This document shows, piece by piece, positions 26,043-37,200 of a stretch of DNA of 64,000 bases. The notes beneath the pieces were generated by a model that ran no database searches, was not told the origin of the DNA, and saw only the letters and a list, made by a program, of their open reading frames with translations. The position numbers were made by a program, and so were the translations under genes. The DNA lies in the NCBI GenBank assembly GCA_949295085.1, contig CASFJS010000004.1, positions 13,372 through 77,371 on the forward strand, written 5' to 3'. How positions within the stretch are numbered: position 1 is the first letter of the stretch; every line of letters starts with the position of its first letter. This stretch comes from an uncultured Pseudomonadota bacterium. GTDB taxonomy: Bacteria; Pseudomonadota; Alphaproteobacteria; RF32; CAG-239.

Positions 26043-27341
<1,299 letters not shown>

Positions 27342-27352
27342 GGCTTAAAGCC

Positions 27353-27402
27353 CGTAAAAAAAGGCCCCTTTTTGAACTGTCCAACTTTCCGGGGACAGTT
27401 CA
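27353..27402. repeat. Left boundary repeat of the AT-rich island (hairpin GAACTGTCC-N-GGACAGTTC preceded by CGTAAAAA..GCCCCT)
   Basis: About 50 bp. Its reverse complement recurs at 33320-33370 with the hairpin stem conserved. Confidence 0.7.
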
Positions 27403-27495
27403 TAAGGCCGGGGAGCTTTTAGCGTATGCAATAGGAATCCTCGGATTCTAAAGGCTAAAAGAATCATTTTGCGAAATGTGATTTACGAACTCTCC

Positions 27496-27526
27496 GACCA
27501 CCTTAGTGCTTAGGTGGTCTTTTTTT
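27496..27526 (+). terminator. Rho-independent terminator
   Basis: GACCACCTTAGTGCTTAGGTGGTC hairpin followed by TTTTTTT. Confidence 0.6.
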
Positions 27527-27985
27527 ATGGAGATTTATTATTTATGGGGAAAATATGCGCTTTTTTTCGGACATAGAAATGTCTATGGCAATATTGACCA
27601 AGAATTGGAAAAGCAAGTAGAAAAGCTCATAATTCAGGAAAATATTGATACGTTTTGGATCGGCGGTTATGGTGAATTTGATAAATTAGCTTCTCGAACA
27701 GTTAGAAAAATGCAGGAAAAATATCCTGTAATACGGTTAATATTGATTATTGCTTATGCAGGGCAACTCCACCGCTTCGGAGATGAATTTCCTTTTGATG
27801 GTTTTGATTATCCTCCTGAAGCTGAAAATGCACCACAAAAATTTGCCATCTCGGCCAGAAATCATTATATGGCTGAAAATTGCGATATGGTTATCTCTCA
27901 TATTGTACATGATTATGGCGGGGCCTATGACGCCGTTAGAACTGCTAAAAGTAAAGGTAAAATTATAATAAATTTAGTTAAATAA
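27527..27985 (+). CDS. YpsA-like DUF1273 protein (SLOG superfamily, predicted nucleotide/ADP-ribose binding)
   Basis: Motifs correspond to B. subtilis YpsA (FGHRN ~ TGYKP; WIGGYGEFDKLA ~ ILISGQLGVELWA; EKYPVIRLILIIAY ~ EEYPDLKVAVITPF). AT-rich. Confidence 0.5.
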   Translation: MEIYYLWGKYALFFGHRNVYGNIDQELEKQVEKLIIQENIDTFWIGGYGEFDKLASRTVRKMQEKYPVIRLILIIAYAGQLHRFGDEFPFDGFDYPPEAENAPQKFAISARNHYMAENCDMVISHIVHDYGGAYDAVRTAKSKGKIIINLVK

Positions 27986-28169
27986 ATATAAAATCTCTCC
28001 AAATAAGAAACTTAAAAAATATATACATTGACTTGCTATAAAAAATCGGCTTAGACTTTAATATAAAATAAATCAATATGGAAATTTTGACATTATAGTT
28101 TATTTTAATATTAGCTAATGGAGTTTTGAACGAGAAGCAAGTAAAAACTATTATAATTAGGAGTTGTCG

Positions 28170-29162
28170 ATGATTTATCCAAATAAATTAAAGCCCGGAT
28201 CTCATATTCGAGTTATTGCGCCATCAAGAAGTTTCAAAATTATTTCAGAAGAAACACGCGAAATTGCGAAAAAACGTTTTGCAGATATGGGAATTTCGGT
28301 AAGTTATTCCAAACATTGTGATGAAATTGACGATTTTGTTTCATCATCAATTGCTTCAAGACTTGAAGATTTGCATGAAGCGTTTGCGGATAAAAGCGTT
28401 GACGGTATTTTAACAGCTATTGGCGGGTTTAATACTAATCAGTTAATTGATAAAATTGATTATACTCTTATTAAAAACAATCCTAAAATTTTATGTGGAT
28501 TTTCAGATATTACTTGCCTTTGCCATGCCATAACAGCAAAGACAGATGTTGTAACCTATTCTGGTCCGCATTTTTCAAGTTTTGGAATGCTTTATGGTTT
28601 TGATTATACATTGGACTATTTTAAAAAGTGTCTAATTGAGAGCAAGCCTTATCAGGTTGTCCCGGCCAAAGAGTTTAGCAATGATGAATGGTTTATGGAT
28701 CAAGAGAAACGTAATTTTACACCCAATAGTGGCTTTTGGATCATTAACAAAGGAAAAGGGAGTGAATTTGAGGGAAAATTAGTTGGCGGGCATGTTCGTT
28801 GTCTGAGTTCATTGCAAGGTACAGAATTTTGGCCGTCTTTGGAAAATACTATTTTGTTTTTAGAAGAAGATGAGGAAACAAACGCCGTTTTATTCGATCG
28901 TTTGTTGCAATCGTTAATTCATCAAGCAGATTTTAAACATGTTAAGGCGTTAATTATTGGCCGTTTCAAACCAGAATCAAAAATTGACAGAAATTTGCTT
29001 GAACAAATCATTCATACCAAAGAAGCCTTGAAAGAGTTACCTGTAATTGCCAATTTTGATATTGGACACTCGACTCCGATTATTACCTATCCAATCGGGG
29101 GACGGATTTCTCTTAAAATGCGGGAAGACGAGTTGCCAGCTATTGAAATACTGGAGCATTAA
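28170..29162 (+). CDS. Peptidase S66 LD-carboxypeptidase / microcin C immunity MccF family
   Basis: GGFN...CGFSDIT (nucleophile Ser) with His/Glu downstream. About 331 aa. RBS AGGAG at 28159. AT-rich. Confidence 0.7.
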   Translation: MIYPNKLKPGSHIRVIAPSRSFKIISEETREIAKKRFADMGISVSYSKHCDEIDDFVSSSIASRLEDLHEAFADKSVDGILTAIGGFNTNQLIDKIDYTLIKNNPKILCGFSDITCLCHAITAKTDVVTYSGPHFSSFGMLYGFDYTLDYFKKCLIESKPYQVVPAKEFSNDEWFMDQEKRNFTPNSGFWIINKGKGSEFEGKLVGGHVRCLSSLQGTEFWPSLENTILFLEEDEETNAVLFDRLLQSLIHQADFKHVKALIIGRFKPESKIDRNLLEQIIHTKEALKELPVIANFDIGHSTPIITYPIGGRISLKMREDELPAIEILEH

Positions 29163-29165
29163 AAA

Positions 29166-29196
29166 AATAGCGGGAAGTTTACTTCCCGCTATTTTT
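29166..29196. terminator. Bidirectional terminator between convergent genes
   Basis: Perfect palindrome AATAGCGGGAAGT-TTAC-TTCCCGCTATT flanked by A and T runs. Confidence 0.65.
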
Positions 29197-30307
29197 ATCT
29201 TGATAATTTATTTTGTGTTAATGTAAAGATTATTGAATTGGAAGAGTTCTCTCCTGTTTGCTTTTGCTGGTTTTCTATAACTTCTGTATTTGATTTTTGA
29301 TTTTGAGATGTTGGACATATAAAATCCATAATTTTTTGAGTATACTCTCCTTTATTAGATCCGTACTCTAATAATTCGTATTGATGTAGTGTCTTTCTTA
29401 ACACCTCTTTGGGAAGATTGGTTTTATCGGCACATGCTTTCATTATCTCAAGATATTTTTTCATTAGACGATTGGTGTTGCCCTTATTAGACGGTTCCAA
29501 TCCATCATTATATAAAGCCATGCTCGTTACAATCGTGTCTTCCATTTTTACTCGGATATTAGGATTTTGAATGTATTTATCTAATCCTAATACGGGGTGG
29601 CAATCCATAACATGATTTAATCCATAAATCTGTTTTAGTACCGTAGAGCTTCCTAAGGCAATCTCTATTCCGAGCTGCTTATCCTGATTTTCTAAAATAA
29701 TAACATTTCCAATATCTGAAAACGTATCTTTTCCATAATCACGCAAAGCGAGATTAAAATTGCGTCCCCAAACACCATCAATACCAAGTTTATGACGATA
29801 ATATTTAGGCTGCATAGTGTCTATTTCAAACATTTCAGATTTAAACATACTATGAGCCAAATCCATCAAATCAGTATCTCTGGCACTAATACGAATTTTT
29901 ATGTCATTAGGATCAATATTCCATTGTTCTTGGATAAAGCTGTAAGTCTGTTTTGTAATATCTTCCAGCCGTTCCGGTTTAGTCAGTATTCCAAGACTTG
30001 GAAAATACGATCCCCAATTCGGATAAAAATCATCATTTTCATAATTTTTTAAATTTCGAGTACGAATACAGGGCTGCGACATAACATAACCGCCAGCAGG
30101 AATACTGTCATTCAAAAAATAAGGCTTTAAAACACTGATGTGCGAACCAATAAAACGAACAGATGGATCTATTCCGGACGATATTTTAACAGGGTCATGT
30201 TTTATACAAGAACGGTCCTGAAAATAGGTTAGAAAACCGTCAATCATATTTTGCATATGAAAATGACTTTCTTTCCTGTTGAAATCTGGCATATCTTTTA
30301 TTTTCAT
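29195..30307 (-). CDS. Standalone alanyl-tRNA synthetase-like class II aaRS catalytic-domain paralog
   Basis: 370 aa. Alignable to the AlaRS N-terminal catalytic core: FLTYFQD...SSGIDPSVRF ~ FLDFFHSKGH...SSSLVPHNDPTLLF; SQPCIRTRN ~ SQRCVRAGG; GIEIALGSSTVLKQIYGLNHVMD ~ [23 protein letters not shown]. No tRNA-binding or editing domains. Confidence 0.45.
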   Translation of the reverse strand: MKIKDMPDFNRKESHFHMQNMIDGFLTYFQDRSCIKHDPVKISSGIDPSVRFIGSHISVLKPYFLNDSIPAGGYVMSQPCIRTRNLKNYENDDFYPNWGSYFPSLGILTKPERLEDITKQTYSFIQEQWNIDPNDIKIRISARDTDLMDLAHSMFKSEMFEIDTMQPKYYRHKLGIDGVWGRNFNLALRDYGKDTFSDIGNVIILENQDKQLGIEIALGSSTVLKQIYGLNHVMDCHPVLGLDKYIQNPNIRVKMEDTIVTSMALYNDGLEPSNKGNTNRLMKKYLEIMKACADKTNLPKEVLRKTLHQYELLEYGSNKGEYTQKIMDFICPTSQNQKSNTEVIENQQKQTGENSSNSIIFTLTQNKLSR

Positions 30308-30317
30308 TTTTTTTATC

Positions 30318-31130
30318 CTATTTTTTACCGTAACCCGACTTAAACTGGGCCATTATTAAGACGTTATTATGATCATGCTGTTTGAACAGTTTAGCCATTT
30401 GGACAATTCTTGTTCCGTACTTTTGACGTCCTTCTGCTGTCATGCCAATTTTCCAATTCCATTCCGGTGTTTTGCACTGTTCACTTAAAGCTTCACGCAG
30501 GAATTGAGATGGGATTCTTGGTGTTACCAGCCTTTCCGGGAAGAATAGCTGCGTATTATCTGAACTTTTTAGATAAAAATAAGATTCAACCGAAGTACGA
30601 GCAGAATCTTCATATATGACGTTATCTTTGATAAAATCTACTAAATTACGATTCCCGGAATATTGAGTTTCAAATTCTGAAATATTCCGTGATGATCCGT
30701 CATAATCAAGCAACTGAACATTCTTTTGTTTGAAAAAGTTATCCATATCATCTGTATCACATTTAACATTTGGAATAAAATGTAAATGTGCATGAAATAT
30801 TGATTTAATATGTGGCGGCGTATTTAATTCTTCCGCCTTACTTGTTCCATGCTCAAACATAATAAAATTTTCTGATTTTGTTGTATTCTCCAAACGATCC
30901 AATATATAACCTACTTCTCGTCCTTGAGCGTCATTAAATTCTGCAAATGTGTTAATATGTTCTTTAGGGAGAATAATAATATGATTGGGAGCAATCGGAA
31001 ATTTATCTGGAATAACCTTAAAGCTCTTAGTTTCAAATAAAGTTACATTACTCTGTAATTCTGGATATTGCTCTTTGATATTTTGAAATTCATCTTTCAA
31101 ACCATCACATAAAACGCAATTTTTTATCAT
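30318..31130 (-). CDS. HIT-family hydrolase (histidine triad; possible phosphoramidase)
   Basis: HAHLHFIP histidine-triad motif and N-terminal CVLCDG. The HIT domain is followed by a C-terminal extension of about 150 aa. Confidence 0.7.
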   Translation of the reverse strand: MIKNCVLCDGLKDEFQNIKEQYPELQSNVTLFETKSFKVIPDKFPIAPNHIIILPKEHINTFAEFNDAQGREVGYILDRLENTTKSENFIMFEHGTSKAEELNTPPHIKSIFHAHLHFIPNVKCDTDDMDNFFKQKNVQLLDYDGSSRNISEFETQYSGNRNLVDFIKDNVIYEDSARTSVESYFYLKSSDNTQLFFPERLVTPRIPSQFLREALSEQCKTPEWNWKIGMTAEGRQKYGTRIVQMAKLFKQHDHNNVLIMAQFKSGYGKK

Positions 31131-31732
31131 AAACTCGCCCCTCCAATGGCGTTTTTTGAGAATTTCATATAATAACCATTTTGTTTTTTACGAACATGAT
31201 TAGCATGTTTTATAATTTGGAAAGCTGCCTCTGTTGCTGACAACTTAGTTACATCTAAGCGTAAAAGATTTGGATGTTCTATCTCTGGCAACCCCAAGTT
31301 CGCAATTTGCTGAACTACATCCGGATTTATTGTTTTTAAAAACTTTTTCCGAAAAGGGTTGGCGATTCTTTTCTTGTTCTCTTTTACATCACACAGTAAC
31401 ATTACAGGAACGAATAAAGCCTGCCGTGTATTGGCAAGCTTTTCAACTGGTTTATAATATGAATTTTCTTCCCCTAGGGAAATTACATTTGTAAATATAA
31501 AAGATTCACCTTTAGGACAAATTTCTCCCATGGCTTCAAGAACAATATTACGCACCTTTAGTCGATATTCTTCATGTTTGGGATGGGAATAATTTTTTGA
31601 TACTGAAAAAATCGCATTTGTATACGAATGATTGTCAACTAAAGTGAATGATTGTTTTTTCTGGATTTCCTTTGCAATGGTTTGCTTTCCCACGCCTGGA
31701 CCTCCGATTAAATAAATGATTGTATTCCTCAT
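31127..31732 (-). CDS. P-loop nucleotide/nucleoside kinase-like protein
   Basis: Walker A motif LIGGPGVGKQTIAKEI, about 200 aa, adenylate-kinase / shikimate-kinase-like size. ATGA overlap with the HIT gene. Confidence 0.55.
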   Translation of the reverse strand: MRNTIIYLIGGPGVGKQTIAKEIQKKQSFTLVDNHSYTNAIFSVSKNYSHPKHEEYRLKVRNIVLEAMGEICPKGESFIFTNVISLGEENSYYKPVEKLANTRQALFVPVMLLCDVKENKKRIANPFRKKFLKTINPDVVQQIANLGLPEIEHPNLLRLDVTKLSATEAAFQIIKHANHVRKKQNGYYMKFSKNAIGGASL

Positions 31733-31805
31733 TTTAACCTTTATGCAAAATTAACATTGCGGCAATCAATTGACTTAATTTTGACAAAATATTTAGGGAA
31801 ACAAC

Positions 31806-31859
31806 ATGATCTTCATCAAAATTATTTCCTTTAATTGTCTTGTTTTCTGCGCCTTTTGA
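31806..31859 (+). other. Candidate 17-aa small ORF (MIFIKIISFNCLVFCAF), possible RiPP precursor/leader
   Basis: ATG preceded by AGGGAA. Two Cys. Lies 130 bp upstream of the radical SAM gene on the same strand. Highly speculative. Confidence 0.15.
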
Positions 31860-31871
31860 TTATTATCGGTT

Positions 31872-31888
31872 GTTAATATATCATTAAC
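31872..31888. promoter_or_regulatory. Palindrome GTTAAT-ATATC-ATTAAC in the divergent promoter region of the island
   Basis: Inverted repeat. A third GTTAAT copy lies at 31949-31954. Adjacent are TTGACA/TTGACT -35-like hexamers (31911-31927). Confidence 0.3.
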
Positions 31889-31991
31889 CATTATCGTGGT
31901 CAATATTTTTTTGACAAAATGTTGACTTTTCCCGATAAGAATGTTAGTGTTAATTGTTTTCCATTAAAAATTACCAGTTCAAGGATAAAAA

Positions 31992-33248
31992 ATGCAAGCA
32001 ACAAACTTATTCAGTCGCACAGTTCCATGTAAAAAAGAGCTAATTAAAGAAGATACCTCTGCTTATTTGGGAACGGAAACATATTCTATTATGAAAAATA
32101 GCTTATTACGCATATCCCCCAATGGAACTCTTGCAATTTCAGGAAAAACAATAAATAGTGTTTTATTCTTAGACAATGAAATGGTTGAGCTTCTTCAACA
32201 ACCGACTTTCACGTTGAATGGAATGCCGCAGTCCGTCGTTCAGAATTTATTAAGCCATGAACTAATAGAACAAACCGACAGGCCTAATTCTTTTAAAAAA
32301 GTCCATTGTCTAAATAACGCCTTGCCATATTATGGCAGAATTGAAATTACCGACGCTTGCCAATGTGATTGTGATATTTGTTATAAAGCGGGAATTCCTA
32401 CTCCTCCACCATCTCTGGATATTCTGAAAAAACGAATCAAGCATTTAAGAAAGCTGGGAATTACCAGACTTGAAATTTTAGGCGGCGAACCATTGCTCAG
32501 AAAAGATTTGCCTGAACTCTGTGATTTTGTAACTAAAGAAAACTTTTTATACACGATTGTAACTAACGGTGAGTATTTATCCTCGTTGGATAAAAGAGCC
32601 ATTAACTCATTAAAAAGCGCAAGTGATGTAATTATAAGTATTGACTCATACGGAGAATTACACGACAAAAGCAGAAAACGTCCGGGACTTTTTGCTAAAG
32701 ATATAGAGGGGATTCAGGTATTAAAAGAAAATGGTATCAACTGCTCTTTGTTATGTACTGTTAATCAGGATAATGAACCTGGCATTGACCAATTAGTCGA
32801 ATACCTAAAACCCTTTGAAGTTAATTTATTTATCCGGCCGACAATAATTGCCGGAGCTGCTGCTAACAACGAATTGCAAAATGTTGATATGCGCCGCATT
32901 TACGAAAAACACAAAAATAATCCGTACGTTTTTCATAATACCGTTCATTTAGCTGACAAAATTCCAGAATCAAAATATTATGGTTGCGATATTCGACAAC
33001 TGATTAATATTGATGTAAATGGCCGTCTACTAATTTGTCATATGGATCGTAAGCATAAAAAGGGGCCTATTGAGAAATATACTCCGGAAATGTTATTACA
33101 AGAATTGGATTTTACCCTGCGCTCACGCTTAAAAAAACAGGAAACCTGTAAGGATTGTGATGTTAACAGTTCATCAGAAGGAATTAAATGTGGGGGATTT
33201 TGCCAATTTTCAAATACTTTTATCAAAAATAAAATAAAAGAACGCTAA
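31992..33248 (+). CDS. Radical SAM / SPASM-domain protein with N-terminal RRE-like extension (peptide-modifying maturase-like)
   Basis: CQCDCDIC fits CxxxCxxC. Glycine-rich SAM motif (LEILGGEPLL). C-terminal Cys cluster CKDCDV...CGGFC (SPASM/twitch-like). About 120 aa of non-rSAM N-terminal domain. Confidence 0.7.
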   Translation: MQATNLFSRTVPCKKELIKEDTSAYLGTETYSIMKNSLLRISPNGTLAISGKTINSVLFLDNEMVELLQQPTFTLNGMPQSVVQNLLSHELIEQTDRPNSFKKVHCLNNALPYYGRIEITDACQCDCDICYKAGIPTPPPSLDILKKRIKHLRKLGITRLEILGGEPLLRKDLPELCDFVTKENFLYTIVTNGEYLSSLDKRAINSLKSASDVIISIDSYGELHDKSRKRPGLFAKDIEGIQVLKENGINCSLLCTVNQDNEPGIDQLVEYLKPFEVNLFIRPTIIAGAAANNELQNVDMRRIYEKHKNNPYVFHNTVHLADKIPESKYYGCDIRQLINIDVNGRLLICHMDRKHKKGPIEKYTPEMLLQELDFTLRSRLKKQETCKDCDVNSSSEGIKCGGFCQFSNTFIKNKIKER

Positions 33249-33319
33249 TTATGAATGGAAAATTTTATGATGAGCTATTTATAGGTCATTTAATATCTAT
33301 CAAAAAAAGCCTCTTAATT

Positions 33320-33370
33320 TTGAACTGTCCCCGGAAAGTTGGACAGTTCACTTCGGAGGGGCTTTTTACG
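33320..33370. repeat. Right boundary repeat of the AT-rich island (inverted copy of 27353-27402)
   Basis: TTGAACTGTCCCCGGAAAGTTGGACAGTTCA...GGGGCTTTTTACG is the reverse complement of the left copy. It doubles as a bidirectional terminator. Confidence 0.7.
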
Positions 33371-33381
33371 ATGGATAACGG

Positions 33382-33696
33382 TTATTTTTCAAGCCCGTCG
33401 ATCAGTGGATTGTTTTTAACTTTTTTTATCAAAACCTGATAATCGCGCAAAACATCATCGCCGGCCTTGTTGTGCTCCAGCACCACAATCCGGTTGCAAT
33501 TATTGAGGGCTTCAACAATCTTGGCGGGAATATAATCAAGCAGCAAAACATCATGGTCGTTTCGGAACAACGTTGCGTGTTTCCCGCCGTCATAAAGCAA
33601 CAACGGCCTTTCCGGCTTCGCTCTTTCATAAGGCAGCACAAACACCGGCACACCCTCATCGCTCAAAACAATCTGATAATCCTTTGCGTGTTTCAT
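33382..33696 (-). CDS. Hypothetical protein
   Basis: 104-aa ORF with host-like GC, coupled to the next ORF. Confidence 0.3.
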   Translation of the reverse strand: MKHAKDYQIVLSDEGVPVFVLPYERAKPERPLLLYDGGKHATLFRNDHDVLLLDYIPAKIVEALNNCNRIVVLEHNKAGDDVLRDYQVLIKKVKNNPLIDGLEK

Positions 33697-33968
33697 TAAC
33701 TGAGTCTTTCTTTGGCCTTTTTCTGCAAAGAGATAGCTTTGTCAATTGTCCAATCGGCGGCTTTAACGCTTTTGTCATACAAAAATTCACCAATGCCGAA
33801 ATTCATCCCCGGCGCCATCTGGTCAGCCATATTTTTGGCGCCGCCGACAAATAATTTGGCCGTTTCGGCAGTAAATTTTAAGCCGTATTTTGCAGCCTTG
33901 GAGGCGATAATTGTCGCGCTCAGGCCGGCTTTTCCGGCGGTTTTTAATGTTTTTTCCATGGTCGGCAT
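33696..33968 (-). CDS. Hypothetical protein
   Basis: 90-aa ORF, Ala/Lys-rich. Confidence 0.25.
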   Translation of the reverse strand: MPTMEKTLKTAGKAGLSATIIASKAAKYGLKFTAETAKLFVGGAKNMADQMAPGMNFGIGEFLYDKSVKAADWTIDKAISLQKKAKERLS

Positions 33969-34290
33969 AAATTTTCTCCCAATTATGATAACTAAAGGTT
34001 AACACAATTTTAACTTTTTGGCAAGTGGCAAAAATTTACCTCCGGCGGTAATGAGGTAATCAATTAAAGAAAATGCACGTTAATTTCCGGTTGACTCTCG
34101 ATATTTGTTGTATTAAATTCCTGCAATGAAGCCAATCGCAAGTTGTAAGGTTTTTTTGATATGTGTTTGTTTATGATCATAGCCGCCCGCGGCATTATTA
34201 TCCCCTAGGGGGATTTACGCTTTTTTACACATATCGTTTTTTAGTTTTCAAAGATACAATCATTTATTTGTTTTTAAGGTGTTTTAAGAG

Positions 34291-37200
34291 ATGAAACATT
34301 ATGCGGATGTTAAGGCAAAGCCTGACTTTGTCGAATTGGAAAAAGAGGTTTTGAAGTTCTGGGATGAGGACAAGACTTTTGAAAAATCGGTGCACAATCG
34401 CGACGGCGCGGCCGAGTTTGTGTTTTATGACGGACCGCCGTTTGCCAACGGCACGCCGCACTACGGCCACATCATGGTGTCTTATGTCAAGGACGTCGTC
34501 GCCCGTTTTCAGACTATGAACGGCAAAAAGGTTGAGCGCCGTTTGGGCTGGGACTGCCACGGCCTGCCGGCCGAAATGTCCGCCGAAAAACAGCTCGGTG
34601 TTTCCGGACGCAAGCAGATCGAGGCCTACGGGGTTGAAAAGTTCAACAATTTCTGCCGTTCCGATGTCTTAAAATATTCCGGCATCTGGGTCGATATGTT
34701 CAAGCGTATCGGCCGCTGGGTAGATTTCAACCACGACTATAAGACCATGGACCTGCCGTTTATGGAAAGCGTCATCAGCAACTTCAAACAGCTTTATGAC
34801 AAGGGCTTGGTCTATGAGGACTACCGCGTTTTGCCGTACTCTTGGGCCGCCGAAACTCCGCTGTCAAATTTTGAGGTCAATCAGGGCTATCAGGACAAAA
34901 CCGACAACGCCATTACCGTGATGTTCAAGCTTGAAAACGGCATGAAAATTCTGGTTTGGACCACTACGCCGTGGACCCTGCCGTCCAATCTGATGTTGGC
35001 GGTGGGCGATGATATCGACTATGTCGTTATGGAAGAAGACGGCCAGAAGTATATCTTGGCGCGCGCGCTGCTCGGTCGCTATAAAAAGCAGCTTGAGCAC
35101 GCCGTTGAGGCGGGCTCCTTAAAAGGGCGTGATCTGGTCGGTATGAGCTACGAGCCGATGTTCCCGTACTTCAAACACTTAAAAGACAAGGGCTGTTTCA
35201 AAGTCTTGTCCGGCGAGTTTGTTTCAACCGAGGACGGTACCGGCGTGGTTCATATTGCCCCCGGCTTTGGTCAGGACGACTTTGACGCCTGCCGCGCGTA
35301 TGACGAGCATTTTCCGGTTGTCTGTCCGGTAGATGAGGCCGGCAAATTTACCGCCGAAGTGTCTGATTACGAGGGCAAACAGGTTTTTGAAACCAACGAG
35401 CCGATTATGCAGTGGCTCAAAGAAAACGGCCTTTTGGTCAAAAAAGAACAATACACCCACTCTTATCCTTTCTGCTGGCGTACCGACACGCCGCTGATTT
35501 ACAAAGCAATGTCGTCGTGGTTTGTCCGCGTAACCGACTTCCGCGACGATATGGTCAAAAACAACCGGCAGATTAACTGGGTGCCGGAGCATATCAAAGA
35601 CGGCCGTTTTGGCAAATGGCTTGAGGGCGCGCGTGACTGGTCAATTTCGCGCAACCGTTTTTGGGGCACGCCGATTCCGGTCTGGAAGTCAGATAATCCG
35701 GCCTATCCGCGGGTTGATGTTTTCGGCTCCATCGCCGAGATAAAGGCCAAAACCGGATTTGATGTCGTCGATTTGCACAAACCTTATATTGACGAAGTTG
35801 TTTACCCCAATCCGGACGATCCTTCCGGCAAGACGATGATGCGTCGCGTCGGCGATGTGTTCGACTGCTGGTTTGAATCCGGCTCCATGCCTTATGCTCA
35901 GGTGCACTATCCGTTTGAGAACAAAGAGTGGTTTGAGAGCCATTTTCCGGCTGATTTTATTGTCGAGGCCATGGACCAGACCCGCGGTTGGTTTTATACC
36001 CTGACGGTATTGTCAACCGCGCTGCACAATCGTCCGGCGTTCAAAAACTGCATTTGCACCGGTCTGTTGATGGCTGAAGGCGGACAAAAGCTTTCCAAAC
36101 GCCTTAAGAATTATCCTGACCCGAACGAGGTTTTGGACACCATCGGCTCGGATGTTTTGCGTTGGTTTTTGGTATCTTCGCCGGTATTAAAAGGCGGCAA
36201 TCTGGCGGTTGACAAAGAGGGCAAAGAGATTGCCAAAGCCGCCCGCGAGGCTTTGATACCGTTATGGAACGCGTTTTACTTCTTTACGCTCTATGCCAAT
36301 GCCGAAAGCTACAGGGCCAAAGAGGTTTACGCCTCAACCGAGGCGATGGACAATTATATTCTGTCCAAATTGCAAAAAACGGCCACGATAGTCAAAAACG
36401 GCTTGGAAACCTATAATGTCGCTGTCGCTTGTGATGAGATTGCCGCATTTATTGAGGTCTTAAACAACTGGTATATCCGCCGTTGCCGCGATCGTTTTTG
36501 GGAGGGCGAGCCTCTGGCATTTGATGTCTTGTACACCGTTTTGCTCAATTTGAGCAAGATTGCCGCGCCGCTGATGCCCTTTGTCGCCGAATATGTTTAC
36601 AAAACCCTAAGCGGCGGCGAATCCGTTCATCTGGCGGACTATCCGGATCTGTCGGCAATAAAATTTGATGCCGCGCTGGTTGAGGATATGGACTTTTTGC
36701 AGGATTTGTGCTCGGCGGCCAAGTTCATCCGCGAAGAAAAGAACCTTCGCAACCGCCTGCCGCTCAAGTCGCTGACCGTTGTCGGCCGTGATCTGCCGGC
36801 GGCTTATGGCGAAATTGTCAAAGATGAGCTAAACGTCAAAGAGGTTTTGTTTGACGCCAATTTGAGCGCCTATGCCGACAAAAAGATTTATCTTTATACG
36901 CCGCTTTTGGGCAAAGCTCTGGGCAAAGAAATGGGCGCGGTAATGGCTGCCTACAAGCAGGGGCATTGGAGCCTCAATGCCGACGGAACTTTGGCGATTG
37001 CCGGCCATAATCTGACCAAAGATTTGTTCGAAGTTCGGCTGGAGATGAAAGAGGGCGTTGCCGGCCGTGCCTTTGCCGATAACAAGGCCTTGGTCACGTT
37101 AAACACGACCGTAACGCCGGAACTCAAACGCGAGGGTATGGCGCGCGACTTCATTCGTCTGGTGCAAACGCTGCGCAAGGATAAAGACTTTAATATTTCC

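Follow-up and report, generated by a model that had tools for sequence, protein, structure and literature searches.

The question raised by this locus is what a radical S-adenosylmethionine (rSAM) enzyme acts upon. The enzyme, 418 residues long, is encoded at 31992..33248 on the forward strand of a 64-kb stretch of contig CASFJS010000004.1, from an uncultured alphaproteobacterium; we refer to this whole stretch as the window. Its gene has an AAGGA ribosome-binding site and is genuine. The original prediction took it for a maturase of a peptide made on the ribosome and modified after translation (RiPP), with a 17-residue Cys-containing peptide encoded just upstream as its candidate precursor, and offered as a fallback that it acts on the product of a neighbouring gene resembling that of alanyl-tRNA synthetase (AlaRS). 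We find instead that the rSAM gene stands at the end of a 5.1-kb mobile cassette of five genes, in the order S66 peptidase, then AlaRS-like, HIT and kinase genes, then rSAM. By analogy with known pathways, and with slightly less than even confidence, we propose that this cassette makes a toxin mimicking an aminoacyl-adenylate and gives immunity to it, the rSAM enzyme acting as a tailoring enzyme. None of the cassette proteins is named in the source databases, and in the literature on cassettes of aminoacyl-tRNA synthetase (aaRS)-like genes with S66/MccF, HIT or rSAM genes no description of this system was found. The surroundings of the gene are of more interest than the RiPP-maturase claim, which lacks support.

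DNA similarity between the window and its relatives runs from ~28150 to ~33260 and takes in exactly five genes. The same five genes, in the same order, are found in loci L005-L008 and L010-L012 at different housekeeping sites, with flanks such as yidC-rnpA-pssA-psd in L005 and prmA-pepP/aspS in L008. The close rSAM homologs are 79-99% identical to the window protein and come from uncultured Alphaproteobacteria, including one human-gut metagenome-assembled genome; this conservation, next to intergenic DNA upstream that is hardly alignable, shows the protein to be under selection. Twelve close homologs were present in 5.8 billion clustered proteins, and the family as a whole comprised ~30 full-length clusters at 50% identity among 1.84 billion representatives. 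The cluster is frequent, 328 contigs carrying the rSAM gene and 413 the HIT gene, and scans of metagenome and viral sequences with the rSAM family alignment added one more true member (L024), the other matches being generic rSAM proteins.

The identity of the enzyme, as originally predicted, is secure. Residues 117-271 match Pfam Radical_SAM (PF04055; E 3.7e-14; score 53.7 bits, cutoff 29.5), and within this core the segment CQCDCDIC supplies the CX3CX2C signature of rSAM enzymes (C123, C127 and C130), accompanied by a GGEP motif. The core is preceded by C13, which sits in a [V/I/A]PC motif, and by an alpha/beta domain at residues ~28-95, and is followed by a SPASM-like C-terminal region in which the cysteines are arranged as C332-X11-G344-X4-C349 and C386-X2-C389-X10-C400-X3-C404. 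Ten cysteines are shared by every one of 22 aligned family members, whose identities span ~25-99%: the three of the core, the six of the C-terminal region and C13, the last of which had escaped remark in the original prediction. C125, which lies between the core cysteines, is kept in 15 of the 22. The predicted architecture of an rSAM core with a cysteine set for auxiliary clusters and an additional N-terminal domain is therefore borne out.

Whether the C-terminal region is a SPASM domain in the strict sense depends on detail. We used the pattern CX9-15GX4C, gap, CX2CX5CX3C, gap, C (seven cysteines) together with a match to Pfam PF13186. The first half of the pattern is present (C332-X11-G344-X4-C349), and the second half reads CX2CX10CX3C in the window protein and the canonical CX2CX5CX3C in the family protein P0012; the window protein is not matched by PF13186, and the final SPASM cysteine is absent. 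The three core and seven other invariant cysteines are as many as a SPASM enzyme carrying two auxiliary clusters has, and C13 may replace the missing final cysteine as a cluster ligand.

The N-terminal domain had been described as similar to a RiPP recognition element (RRE), and here structure and sequence give different answers. An AlphaFold2 model built from 43 sequences (predicted local distance difference test, pLDDT, 88; predicted template-modelling score 0.88) was compared with the PDB by Foldseek, and the best matches were the RiPP maturases SkfB, SuiB and CteB, aligned over 390-460 columns and their full lengths (E 1e-16 to 1e-11), followed by BlsE, MoaA, anSME and viperins. In this model the segment 30-94, predicted to fold as beta-beta-beta-(beta)-alpha-alpha-beta, is placed as the RRE of SkfB, SuiB and CteB. 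By contrast, residues 1-115 had no Pfam match, hhalign of the N-terminal domain against the PqqD domain of P0019 gave a probability of 0.3%, and a PDB profile search for an RRE/PqqD relation returned nothing. Since these sequence and profile tests were negative, we use the term RRE-like in the sense of predicted structure only. The maturase-type architecture divides in the same way: the nearest predicted structures are those of RiPP maturases, whereas no NCBIfam family was reached by the protein, its best scores of 45-65 bits falling below cutoffs of 180-850. Among the RiPP maturase models the scores were 48.9 bits against 850 for AlbA, 56.7 against 625 for StsB, 44.8 against 300 for SkfB, 57 against 650 for WgkB and 60.9 against 400 for ScmF. 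The likeness to SkfB, SuiB, CteB and AlbA is thus one of layout, an N-terminal alpha/beta domain, an rSAM core and a Cys-rich auxiliary-cluster domain. The window protein differs from these enzymes in being only 15-19% identical to them, in having no PqqD signal and no adjacent precursor gene, in its invariant N-terminal cysteine and the X10 spacing of its second SPASM half, and in its neighbours, which are aaRS-like and nucleotide enzymes.

The absence of an adjacent precursor gene follows from a closer look at the proposed one. The 17-residue open reading frame (ORF), MIFIKIISFNCLVFCAF (31806..31859, forward strand), has an ATG start, AGGGAA upstream and two cysteines, and it precedes an enzyme whose architecture resembles those of RiPP maturases. 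Comparison with the relatives speaks otherwise. In L010, where the module is 96% identical at the DNA level and the rSAM protein 99% identical, ACATGATC reads ACCTGATT, so that ATG becomes CTG and the start is lost; in L011 and L012 (90%) the stretch carrying the start is deleted, and in L005, L006 and L008 (79-86%) a ~66-bp segment holding it is absent. The ATG moreover falls within CATGAT, which is the -10 hexamer of a promoter-like match (31781-31810), and the encoded peptide is extremely hydrophobic, with the composition of AT-rich intergenic DNA. Contrary to what had been stated, it is not the only small ORF on its strand in the upstream region, as three TTG-initiated ones overlap it. A comparison of every ORF of at least 5 residues, covering either strand of the four intergenic regions in five copies of the module, revealed no small ORF that is conserved; matches occurred only between the near-identical window and L010, and there in every frame. 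Because its start is lost or its segment deleted in the relatives and no small ORF is conserved, we judge the 17-residue ORF spurious and outside the system. Conservation in related islands had been proposed from the outset as the test of the pairing, and it came out against a precursor; a sacti-, ranthipeptide- or PqqE-like maturase acting on this peptide is now extremely improbable.

The fallback of the original prediction, in which the enzyme may act on the AlaRS-like product, fits best, as the rSAM gene travels with the AlaRS-like, HIT, kinase and S66 genes. What these four genes encode is accordingly central to the question. The S66 serine peptidase (28164..29162, forward strand; 332 residues, with the Pfam S66 N- and C-terminal domains) forms its own transcription unit, convergent with the operon that ends in the AlaRS-like gene. 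Its PDB matches are led by the "MccF-like" proteins BA_5613 and Lmo1638 (E 2e-101 to 1e-96), followed by MccF (1e-37 to 1e-29) and LdcA (1e-20 or weaker). In an alignment that included two E. coli proteins, LdcA and the MccF encoded on plasmid MccC7-H22, all S66 proteins of the cassettes retain the equivalents of S118, H311 and E243. They also carry a loop of ~30 residues with the pattern (S/T)(D/N)(D/E)xW(F/Y)xDQE(K/N)R, absent from E. coli LdcA, whose Trp is aligned to W186 of MccF; in MccF this residue makes a stacking contact with the adenine in processed microcin C (PMC8323819). By sequence, the cassette peptidases are of the MccF type and not of the LdcA type.

The AlaRS-like protein (29195..30307, reverse strand; 370 residues) consists of a class II catalytic domain, the start of a tRNA-recognition domain and a tail at residues 334-370. 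Its family profile matched only AlaRS in the PDB, and the top 19 Foldseek matches of its AlphaFold2 model (pLDDT 90) were AlaRS catalytic fragments, with a template-modelling (TM) score of ~0.7. An hhalign comparison with E. coli AlaRS (94.5% probability) placed R69 on R82 and N212 on N201, both invariant, D235 on E215, an invariant Glu, and G237 on A217; the motif 3 sequence GLER is replaced by GSST, with loss of the ATP-binding Arg. A word-indexed search returned 183 matches for the family, many of them in Patescibacteria, and ~26 residues, many of them polar, are invariant. The tail is predicted to be disordered (pLDDT <50) and ends in ...SIIFTLTQNKLSR; its peptide reads SSNSIIFTLTQNKLSR. 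Although the tail (codons 29195-29305) is variable, its last ~13 residues form a hydrophobic patch followed by (K/N)N(K/N)xSR, and this ending is conserved only in cassettes with the kinase and the rSAM gene; it is absent from L001, L013, L017, L022, L181 and the Patescibacteria loci. As a link between the tail and the rSAM enzyme holds in cassettes of the window type and fails in L001, which has an rSAM gene, we keep it as a hypothesis only.

The two remaining proteins are related to nucleotide-handling enzymes. The HIT-family protein (30318..31130, reverse strand; 270 residues) begins with a HIT domain of the Hint type, and its C-terminal half, ~150 residues long, is uncharacterised; it scores above cutoff for Pfam DcpS_C and HIT, carries CVLC..., HAHLHFIP and the HxHxHxx motif, and matches HIT hydrolases, Hint and Fhit in the PDB. 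Its family is small, with 45 matches, three of which are kinase::HIT fusions. The P-loop kinase (31127..31732, reverse strand; 201 residues, Walker A GGPGVGKQT) is the first gene of the kinase-HIT-AlaRS-like operon; its similarity to Pfam AAA_18/AAA_17 is under cutoff, and a weak adenylate-kinase-like similarity was seen. Kinase and HIT genes overlap by 4 nt and a gap of 10 nt separates the HIT from the AlaRS-like gene, and in P0178-P0180 and L181 (L181:7001-8344) the kinase is fused to the HIT domain in proteins of 447-460 residues.

Beyond the window-type cassettes, a smaller core recurs in which an S66 gene has as its neighbour a paralog of a class II aaRS, in most cases the AlaRS-like gene. 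The AlaRS-like gene adjoins an S66 gene in all eight of the distinct architectures examined in Alphaproteobacteria and Patescibacteria, and its S66 partners belong to one subfamily of 55-71% identity. In L013 and L017 the arrangement is HIT-AlaRS-like, then S66; in L181-183 a kinase::HIT fusion is followed by methyltransferase-AlaRS-like-S66; in L022 a TetR-like regulator, a membrane protein and the AlaRS-like gene precede S66; and in the Patescibacteria loci L014-16 and L018-20 the order is HD-methyltransferase-AlaRS-like-S66-tRNA-synt_2 paralog. L001, an element with an integrase and a terminase, has S66, then AlaRS-like, then S66-tRNA-synt_2 paralog-rSAM, so that it carries two S66 genes, an AgnA-like tRNA-synt_2 paralog and an rSAM protein 65% identical to that of the window. 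The window type and L001 thus represent two architectures in which an rSAM gene has joined the AlaRS-like/S66 core, and together they link this rSAM family to aaRS-like and nucleotide-handling enzymes and not to a peptide gene. Two side observations concern L181: its cassette shares the psd/pssA chromosomal site with L005, and it has a methyltransferase in place of the rSAM gene, with AlaRS-like and S66 genes in one operon and overlapping reading frames.

These gene contents point to an aminoacyl-adenylate-like small molecule as the product, on three grounds: an MccF-type peptidase with a nucleotide-binding loop recurs beside class II aaRS paralogs; the genes that vary around this pair (HIT, kinase, HD, HAD, methyltransferase and rSAM) are of nucleotide or tailoring types; and AcmF, AgnA, MccF and MccH provide precedents. 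A peptide substrate is disfavoured by the lack of a conserved small ORF in the module. In the pathway that we propose, the kinase and the Hint-type HIT protein, fused in some relatives, would prepare or interconvert an adenosine phosphate or a phosphoramidate-type acceptor. The AlaRS-like enzyme, in which the adenylate-binding motif-2 Arg is kept and the motif-3 Arg lost, would attach a small amino acid to this acceptor, possibly drawing it from an aminoacyl-tRNA as AcmF does in ascamycin biosynthesis. The rSAM/SPASM enzyme would then use radical chemistry to alter either the nucleoside or the aminoacyl moiety, and the conserved C-terminal tail of the AlaRS-like enzyme may dock on the RRE-like domain, holding the rSAM enzyme on it. 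Finally, the separately transcribed MccF-type S66 protein would hydrolyse the aminoacyl-N bond and so confer self-immunity. What we observe is which genes are present, their synteny and mobility, the predicted folds, the residue patterns of the active sites and the failure of the 17-residue ORF to be conserved; every chemical step, what the product is, and what the rSAM enzyme does and acts upon we infer from these.

The closest precedent for the AlaRS-like step is AcmF, an AlaRS-like enzyme that is likewise truncated; it takes Ala from Ala-tRNA and places it on the sulfamate nitrogen of dealanylascamycin, giving ascamycin, a mimic of Ala-AMP, and is reported to have no ATP-binding residues and to bear the changes D232E and N219Q (PMC12945691). 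Like AcmF, which we compared through its published description, the window protein is a truncated paralog that retains the aminoacylation domain together with some of the tRNA-recognition domain. It likewise shows loss of an ATP-binding residue and an Asp-to-Glu change at the position binding the alpha-amino group (D232E in AcmF; D235 to E215 here). The Asn-to-Gln change of AcmF, in contrast, is not found in the window protein, in which the Asn is retained; the parallel is partial. The acm cluster itself differs in being a many-gene Streptomyces sulfamate pathway, with the alpha/beta hydrolase AcmE instead of an S66 enzyme and without a comparable HIT/kinase/rSAM set.

A second precedent emerged from a tblastn search of plasmids with the S66 protein, which led to a 44,420-bp Agrobacterium plasmid of the pAgK84 type carrying the agn cluster. 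The gene order there is asparagine-synthetase-A-like AgnA, methyltransferase, leucyl-tRNA synthetase (LeuRS), two hypothetical proteins, short-chain dehydrogenase/reductase, methyltransferase, amidohydrolase, S66, dioxygenase and radical SAM. The tRNA-synt_2 paralog standing before the rSAM homolog in L001 shares 42% identity with AgnA (E 2e-54), and AgnA has further relatives among the paralogs of the Patescibacteria loci and of a Bradyrhizobium elkanii plasmid with the order S66-AgnA-like-HAD-methyltransferase. Formation of agrocin 84's phosphoramide bond has been proposed as the role of AgnA, the agn pathway itself being unsolved (PMC8323819). The agn cluster and the cassettes have in common class II aaRS paralogs (AgnA and possibly AgnC1 in agn), methyltransferases, an S66 protein (AgnC5) and an rSAM protein (AgnC7); the agn product is a phosphoramidate aminoacyl-adenylate mimic, and AgnC5, to which the window S66 protein is 27% identical, carries the MccF-type Trp loop. 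The differences are also considerable: agn has 17 genes against five, and the window cassette has no homologs of AgnA, AgnC1 or the immunity LeuRS and no genes for a sugar or uptake moiety, AgnA homologs being confined to the sister cassettes L001, L014, L018 and L185. No similarity was detectable between AgnC1 and the AlaRS-like protein, and AgnC7, which is without the N-terminal domain, resembles the window rSAM protein only in the generic core. The Bradyrhizobium elkanii genes just mentioned, at L185:5980-9765 on plasmid pS05J, encode an S66 protein 47% identical to that of the window, an AgnA-like "amino acid-tRNA ligase-related protein", a HAD hydrolase and a methyltransferase; they adjoin nodU on the symbiosis plasmid and look like a version of the cassette in a cultured, experimentally tractable organism.

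The third system is microcin C, whose processed form is cleaved by two known enzymes, MccH of the HIT family and MccF of the S66 family (PMC7157772, PMC8323819), MccH-type enzymes cutting the P-N bond (PMC7157772). MccF resembles the window S66 protein in having the catalytic triad and Trp loop and in being transcribed separately, convergent with the biosynthetic operon; on plasmid MccC7-H22 mccF is convergent with a ThiF/MFS/methyltransferase/GNAT operon. A HIT-family phosphoramidase provides microcin C with a second detoxification route and finds its counterpart in the cassette HIT protein. On the other hand, the window cassette lacks an MccA gene, ThiF-type MccB, MccC, MccD and MccE, no ThiF-like gene being found among the island genes. 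Its S66 protein is only ~28% identical to E. coli MccF and closest to the uncharacterised BA_5613/Lmo1638 group, and its HIT protein is twice the length of MccH. We define mcc-like systems by an MccA peptide ending in Asn with a ThiF-type MccB adenylyltransferase, agn-like systems by AgnA, AgnC1 and an immunity LeuRS along with S66, rSAM and methyltransferase genes, and RiPP systems by an RRE recognisable to a profile, a conserved neighbouring precursor gene and the curated score of a named maturase. The cassette falls outside all three and resembles clusters for aminoacyl-nucleotides of the aaRS-inhibitor type.

The same precedents allow another explanation, in which nothing is synthesized and the cassette confers resistance only: the S66 and HIT proteins would hydrolyse imported mimics resembling microcin C, agrocin or ascamycin, the AlaRS-like protein, catalytically crippled, would bind them as a decoy, and the kinase and rSAM enzyme would inactivate them further. 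Resistance to processed microcin C is an established function of MccF and of MccH, each of which is encoded by stand-alone genes as well (PMC8323819, PMC7157772); the loss of the motif-3 Arg from the AlaRS-like protein and the lack of an exporter in the cassette are in keeping with this explanation. Yet the ~26 invariant and often polar residues of the AlaRS-like family argue for catalysis over mere binding, and the tight packing of the kinase, HIT and AlaRS-like genes likewise counts against it. The variable tailoring genes (methyltransferase, HD, HAD, rSAM and AgnA-like) are typical of biosynthesis, for which AgnA-type enzymes have also been proposed (PMC8323819). On balance we regard a purely protective cassette as quite improbable.

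Other considerations weigh against the biosynthetic proposal itself. The scheme rests on analogy for all five proteins, and the structures nearest to the rSAM model, those of SkfB, SuiB and CteB, belong to enzymes that modify peptides, so that a small-molecule substrate would leave the predicted RRE-like domain unexplained. The rSAM gene is absent from most AlaRS-like/S66 cassettes and is thus unneeded for the core function; its distant relatives (32-50% identity) have no visible aaRS-like gene beside them, although several of these contigs stop at or inside the rSAM gene and show their neighbourhoods only in part. Missing from the window cassette are an AgnA homolog, an enzyme of the MccB type, an exporter and a resistant copy of an aaRS. 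The S66 and AlaRS-like genes share one operon in L181 and the Patescibacteria loci, an arrangement that could reflect a biosynthetic role of the S66 enzyme and not one in immunity. Hint-type HIT proteins are as a rule hydrolases, and a synthetic role for the one encoded here is speculative. Lastly, the tail motif of the AlaRS-like protein is missing in L001 even though an rSAM enzyme is present.

A rival explanation is that the rSAM enzyme modifies a peptide or protein after all, either a precursor encoded elsewhere or the AlaRS-like tail ending ...SIIFTLTQNKLSR, bound by the RRE-like domain, with the S66 enzyme perhaps releasing the product by the logic of a scaffold peptide, like a "pearlin". 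The whole-length Foldseek matches to RRE-bearing SkfB, SuiB and CteB and the presence of several RiPP maturases among the weak NCBIfam matches speak for it. The tail, moreover, is predicted to be disordered and ends in a hydrophobic patch and NKxSR only in the rSAM-linked subgroup, S66 enzymes are carboxypeptidases, and L024 has a 65-residue ORF showing weak collinearity with the N-terminal domain of the rSAM enzyme. Against this stand the missing RRE/PqqD signal by sequence or profile, scores far from the RiPP-maturase cutoffs and a module without a conserved small ORF. L001 has the rSAM enzyme and an AlaRS-like protein without the tail motif, and the S66 protein bears the nucleotide-binding loop of MccF. 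We therefore consider a peptide or protein substrate unlikely.

The mobility of the cassette and the viperins among the structural matches suggest yet another role, in which infection would trigger production of a modified (aminoacyl-)nucleotide that blocks translation or replication, as in a viperin-like anti-phage or abortive-infection module with a helper kinase, the S66 and HIT proteins otherwise keeping its level low. Several neighbourhoods are suggestive of defence: L001 lies between a terminase/helix-turn-helix pair and an integrase, L003 adjoins AbiTii, a ResIII restriction enzyme and SNF2, L005 adjoins T5orf172, ResIII and KilA-N, and in the window inverted repeats bound the island. 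The rSAM core superposes on viperins with TM scores of 0.70-0.78 normalised to the target, and PADLOC pVip models, including that for "viperins associated with kinases", gave 56 bits. This score, however, falls on the rSAM core only and is of the generic kind, and NCBIfam viperin_w_prok reached 48.3 bits against a cutoff of 180. With that cutoff missed, and with a SPASM-like C-terminus and an extra N-terminal domain instead of the NTP-binding C-terminal extension specific to viperins, we rejected the identification of the protein as a prokaryotic viperin. No cassette gene other than rSAM had a PADLOC match, none of its proteins has a domain of the sensor or effector kinds usual in defence systems, and the AlaRS-like/S66 pair is common in Patescibacteria operons without defence neighbours; a role in defence is accordingly an improbable one.

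Returning to the proposed toxin pathway, a bolder version may be sketched, which we think rather unlikely. The cassette would represent a new toxin route built around an AlaRS-derived transferase, with neither a ThiF enzyme nor a peptide precursor. Its RRE-like domain would have been repurposed from reading a leader peptide to docking the AlaRS-like tail, so that the rSAM enzyme modifies a labile aminoacyl-nucleotide while it is enzyme-bound. The AlaRS-like/S66 core, which is widespread in Patescibacteria and in Alphaproteobacteria of the human gut, would mark a large hidden family of aaRS-targeting natural products.

To our knowledge, the known compounds of this class are only microcin C, agrocin 84, albomycin and the ascamycin type. 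If the proposed pathway is correct, a five-gene, 5-kb cassette that is common in uncultured gut Alphaproteobacteria would be among the smallest known routes to an aminoacyl-tRNA synthetase inhibitor, and the pairing of an AlaRS-like gene with an MccF-type S66 gene would be a searchable signature across Patescibacteria and Proteobacteria. It would also assign a function to the "MccF-like" peptidases of the BA_5613/Lmo1638 group, extend AcmF-type chemistry beyond Streptomyces and provide an example of an RRE-like rSAM enzyme outside peptide maturation. For annotation, the lesson is that an rSAM/SPASM protein with an N-terminal domain should not be called a RiPP maturase unless a conserved precursor accompanies it.

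The distant members of the rSAM family keep other company. In L003 (50% identity) the neighbours are other rSAM/SPASM genes; in L004 and L024 (32-33%) the rSAM gene occurs with two other rSAM/SPASM genes and a methyltransferase gene, L024 having a PP-loop ATPase in addition, and P0214 is an rSAM::methyltransferase fusion. The L024 cluster (L024:828-6211) comprises the distant rSAM gene, the PP-loop ATPase, the methyltransferase, the 65-residue ORF and the two further rSAM/SPASM genes, and L003 and L004 appear as partial versions of this arrangement; the collinearity of the 65-residue ORF with the rSAM N-terminal domain has an hhalign E of 0.006. A possible link between the methyltransferases of L004, L024 and the P0214 fusion and those of L014, L018 and L181 was discarded, as the similarity is generic only. 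In L009 (49%) the rSAM gene is paired with a SLOG protein and an M20 peptidase; this SLOG protein (L009:2681-3238) belongs to another family (LDcluster4), and a Ham1-like NTPase is nearby.

Some loci with the AlaRS-like/S66 core have noteworthy genes next to it. Upstream of the Patescibacteria cassette in L014 (L014:3761-6111) are a 385-residue protein resembling phenylalanyl-tRNA synthetase alpha (FDX-ACB), an MvdD-like ATP-grasp ligase and a 53-residue ORF, which may form a RiPP pair of the microviridin type or else belong to the same cluster. In L018 (L018:10980-12594) a 67-residue ORF followed by a 463-residue rSAM/SPASM gene lies ~700 bp downstream of the AlaRS-like/S66/AgnA-like operon and, unlike the pair proposed for the window, could be a genuine combination of precursor and maturase. 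Two tandem dCTP-deaminase-like (DCD) genes follow directly 3' of S66 in L022 (L022:6706-7714).

In the window, the cassette occupies most of a low-GC island at ~27.4-33.4 kb, between enolase and isoleucyl-tRNA synthetase (ileS), with ~34% GC against ~50% in the flanks. The island also contains, outside the shared module, a gene for a SLOG/YpsA-like protein of 159 residues (27506..27985, forward strand; Pfam YpsA 24.5 bits, under cutoff). SLOG domains bind nucleotides; the gene is absent from the related loci, and its position outside the shared module marks it as accessory or unrelated. Two neighbouring ORFs on the reverse strand separate the island from ileS, at 33382-33696 (104 residues) and 33696-33968 (90 residues), neither of which had a Pfam, NCBIfam or PADLOC match.

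The island is exactly flanked by a perfect 28-nt inverted repeat, GAACTGTCCAACTTTCCGGGGACAGTTC, the core of a ~70-nt imperfect repeat, with its left copy at 27374..27401 on the forward strand and its right copy at 33322..33349 on the reverse strand, within a hairpin 3' of the rSAM gene. Two copies are present in the window where none would be expected, and none was found in the 187 other loci examined. Each copy forms a hairpin beside a T-run; the pair may be a mobile element's terminal repeats or a terminator that has been duplicated. The hairpin 3' of the rSAM gene is the second of the region; the other, an inverted repeat at 29146..29213 between the convergent S66 and AlaRS-like genes, is likely a bidirectional terminator. 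Rfam matches in 27000-34400 were sub-threshold and confined to the terminator hairpin, and we dismissed them as chance hits.

The kinase operon and the rSAM gene diverge from a control region at 31733..31991, which contains two copies of TTTTGACAAAAT(A/G)TT, at 31779-31793 and 31909-31923. Its distal part, at ~31896-31945, is kept in the relatives and has the promoter-like pattern TTTTTGACAAAAT(G/A)TTGAC...GATAA(A/G)AAT. Written as (A)TTTTGACA(A/T)(A/T)AT, the motif occurs at the same two positions and again at 28083-28100, upstream of S66, and may be a common promoter -35 region or an operator through which the transcription units are co-regulated.

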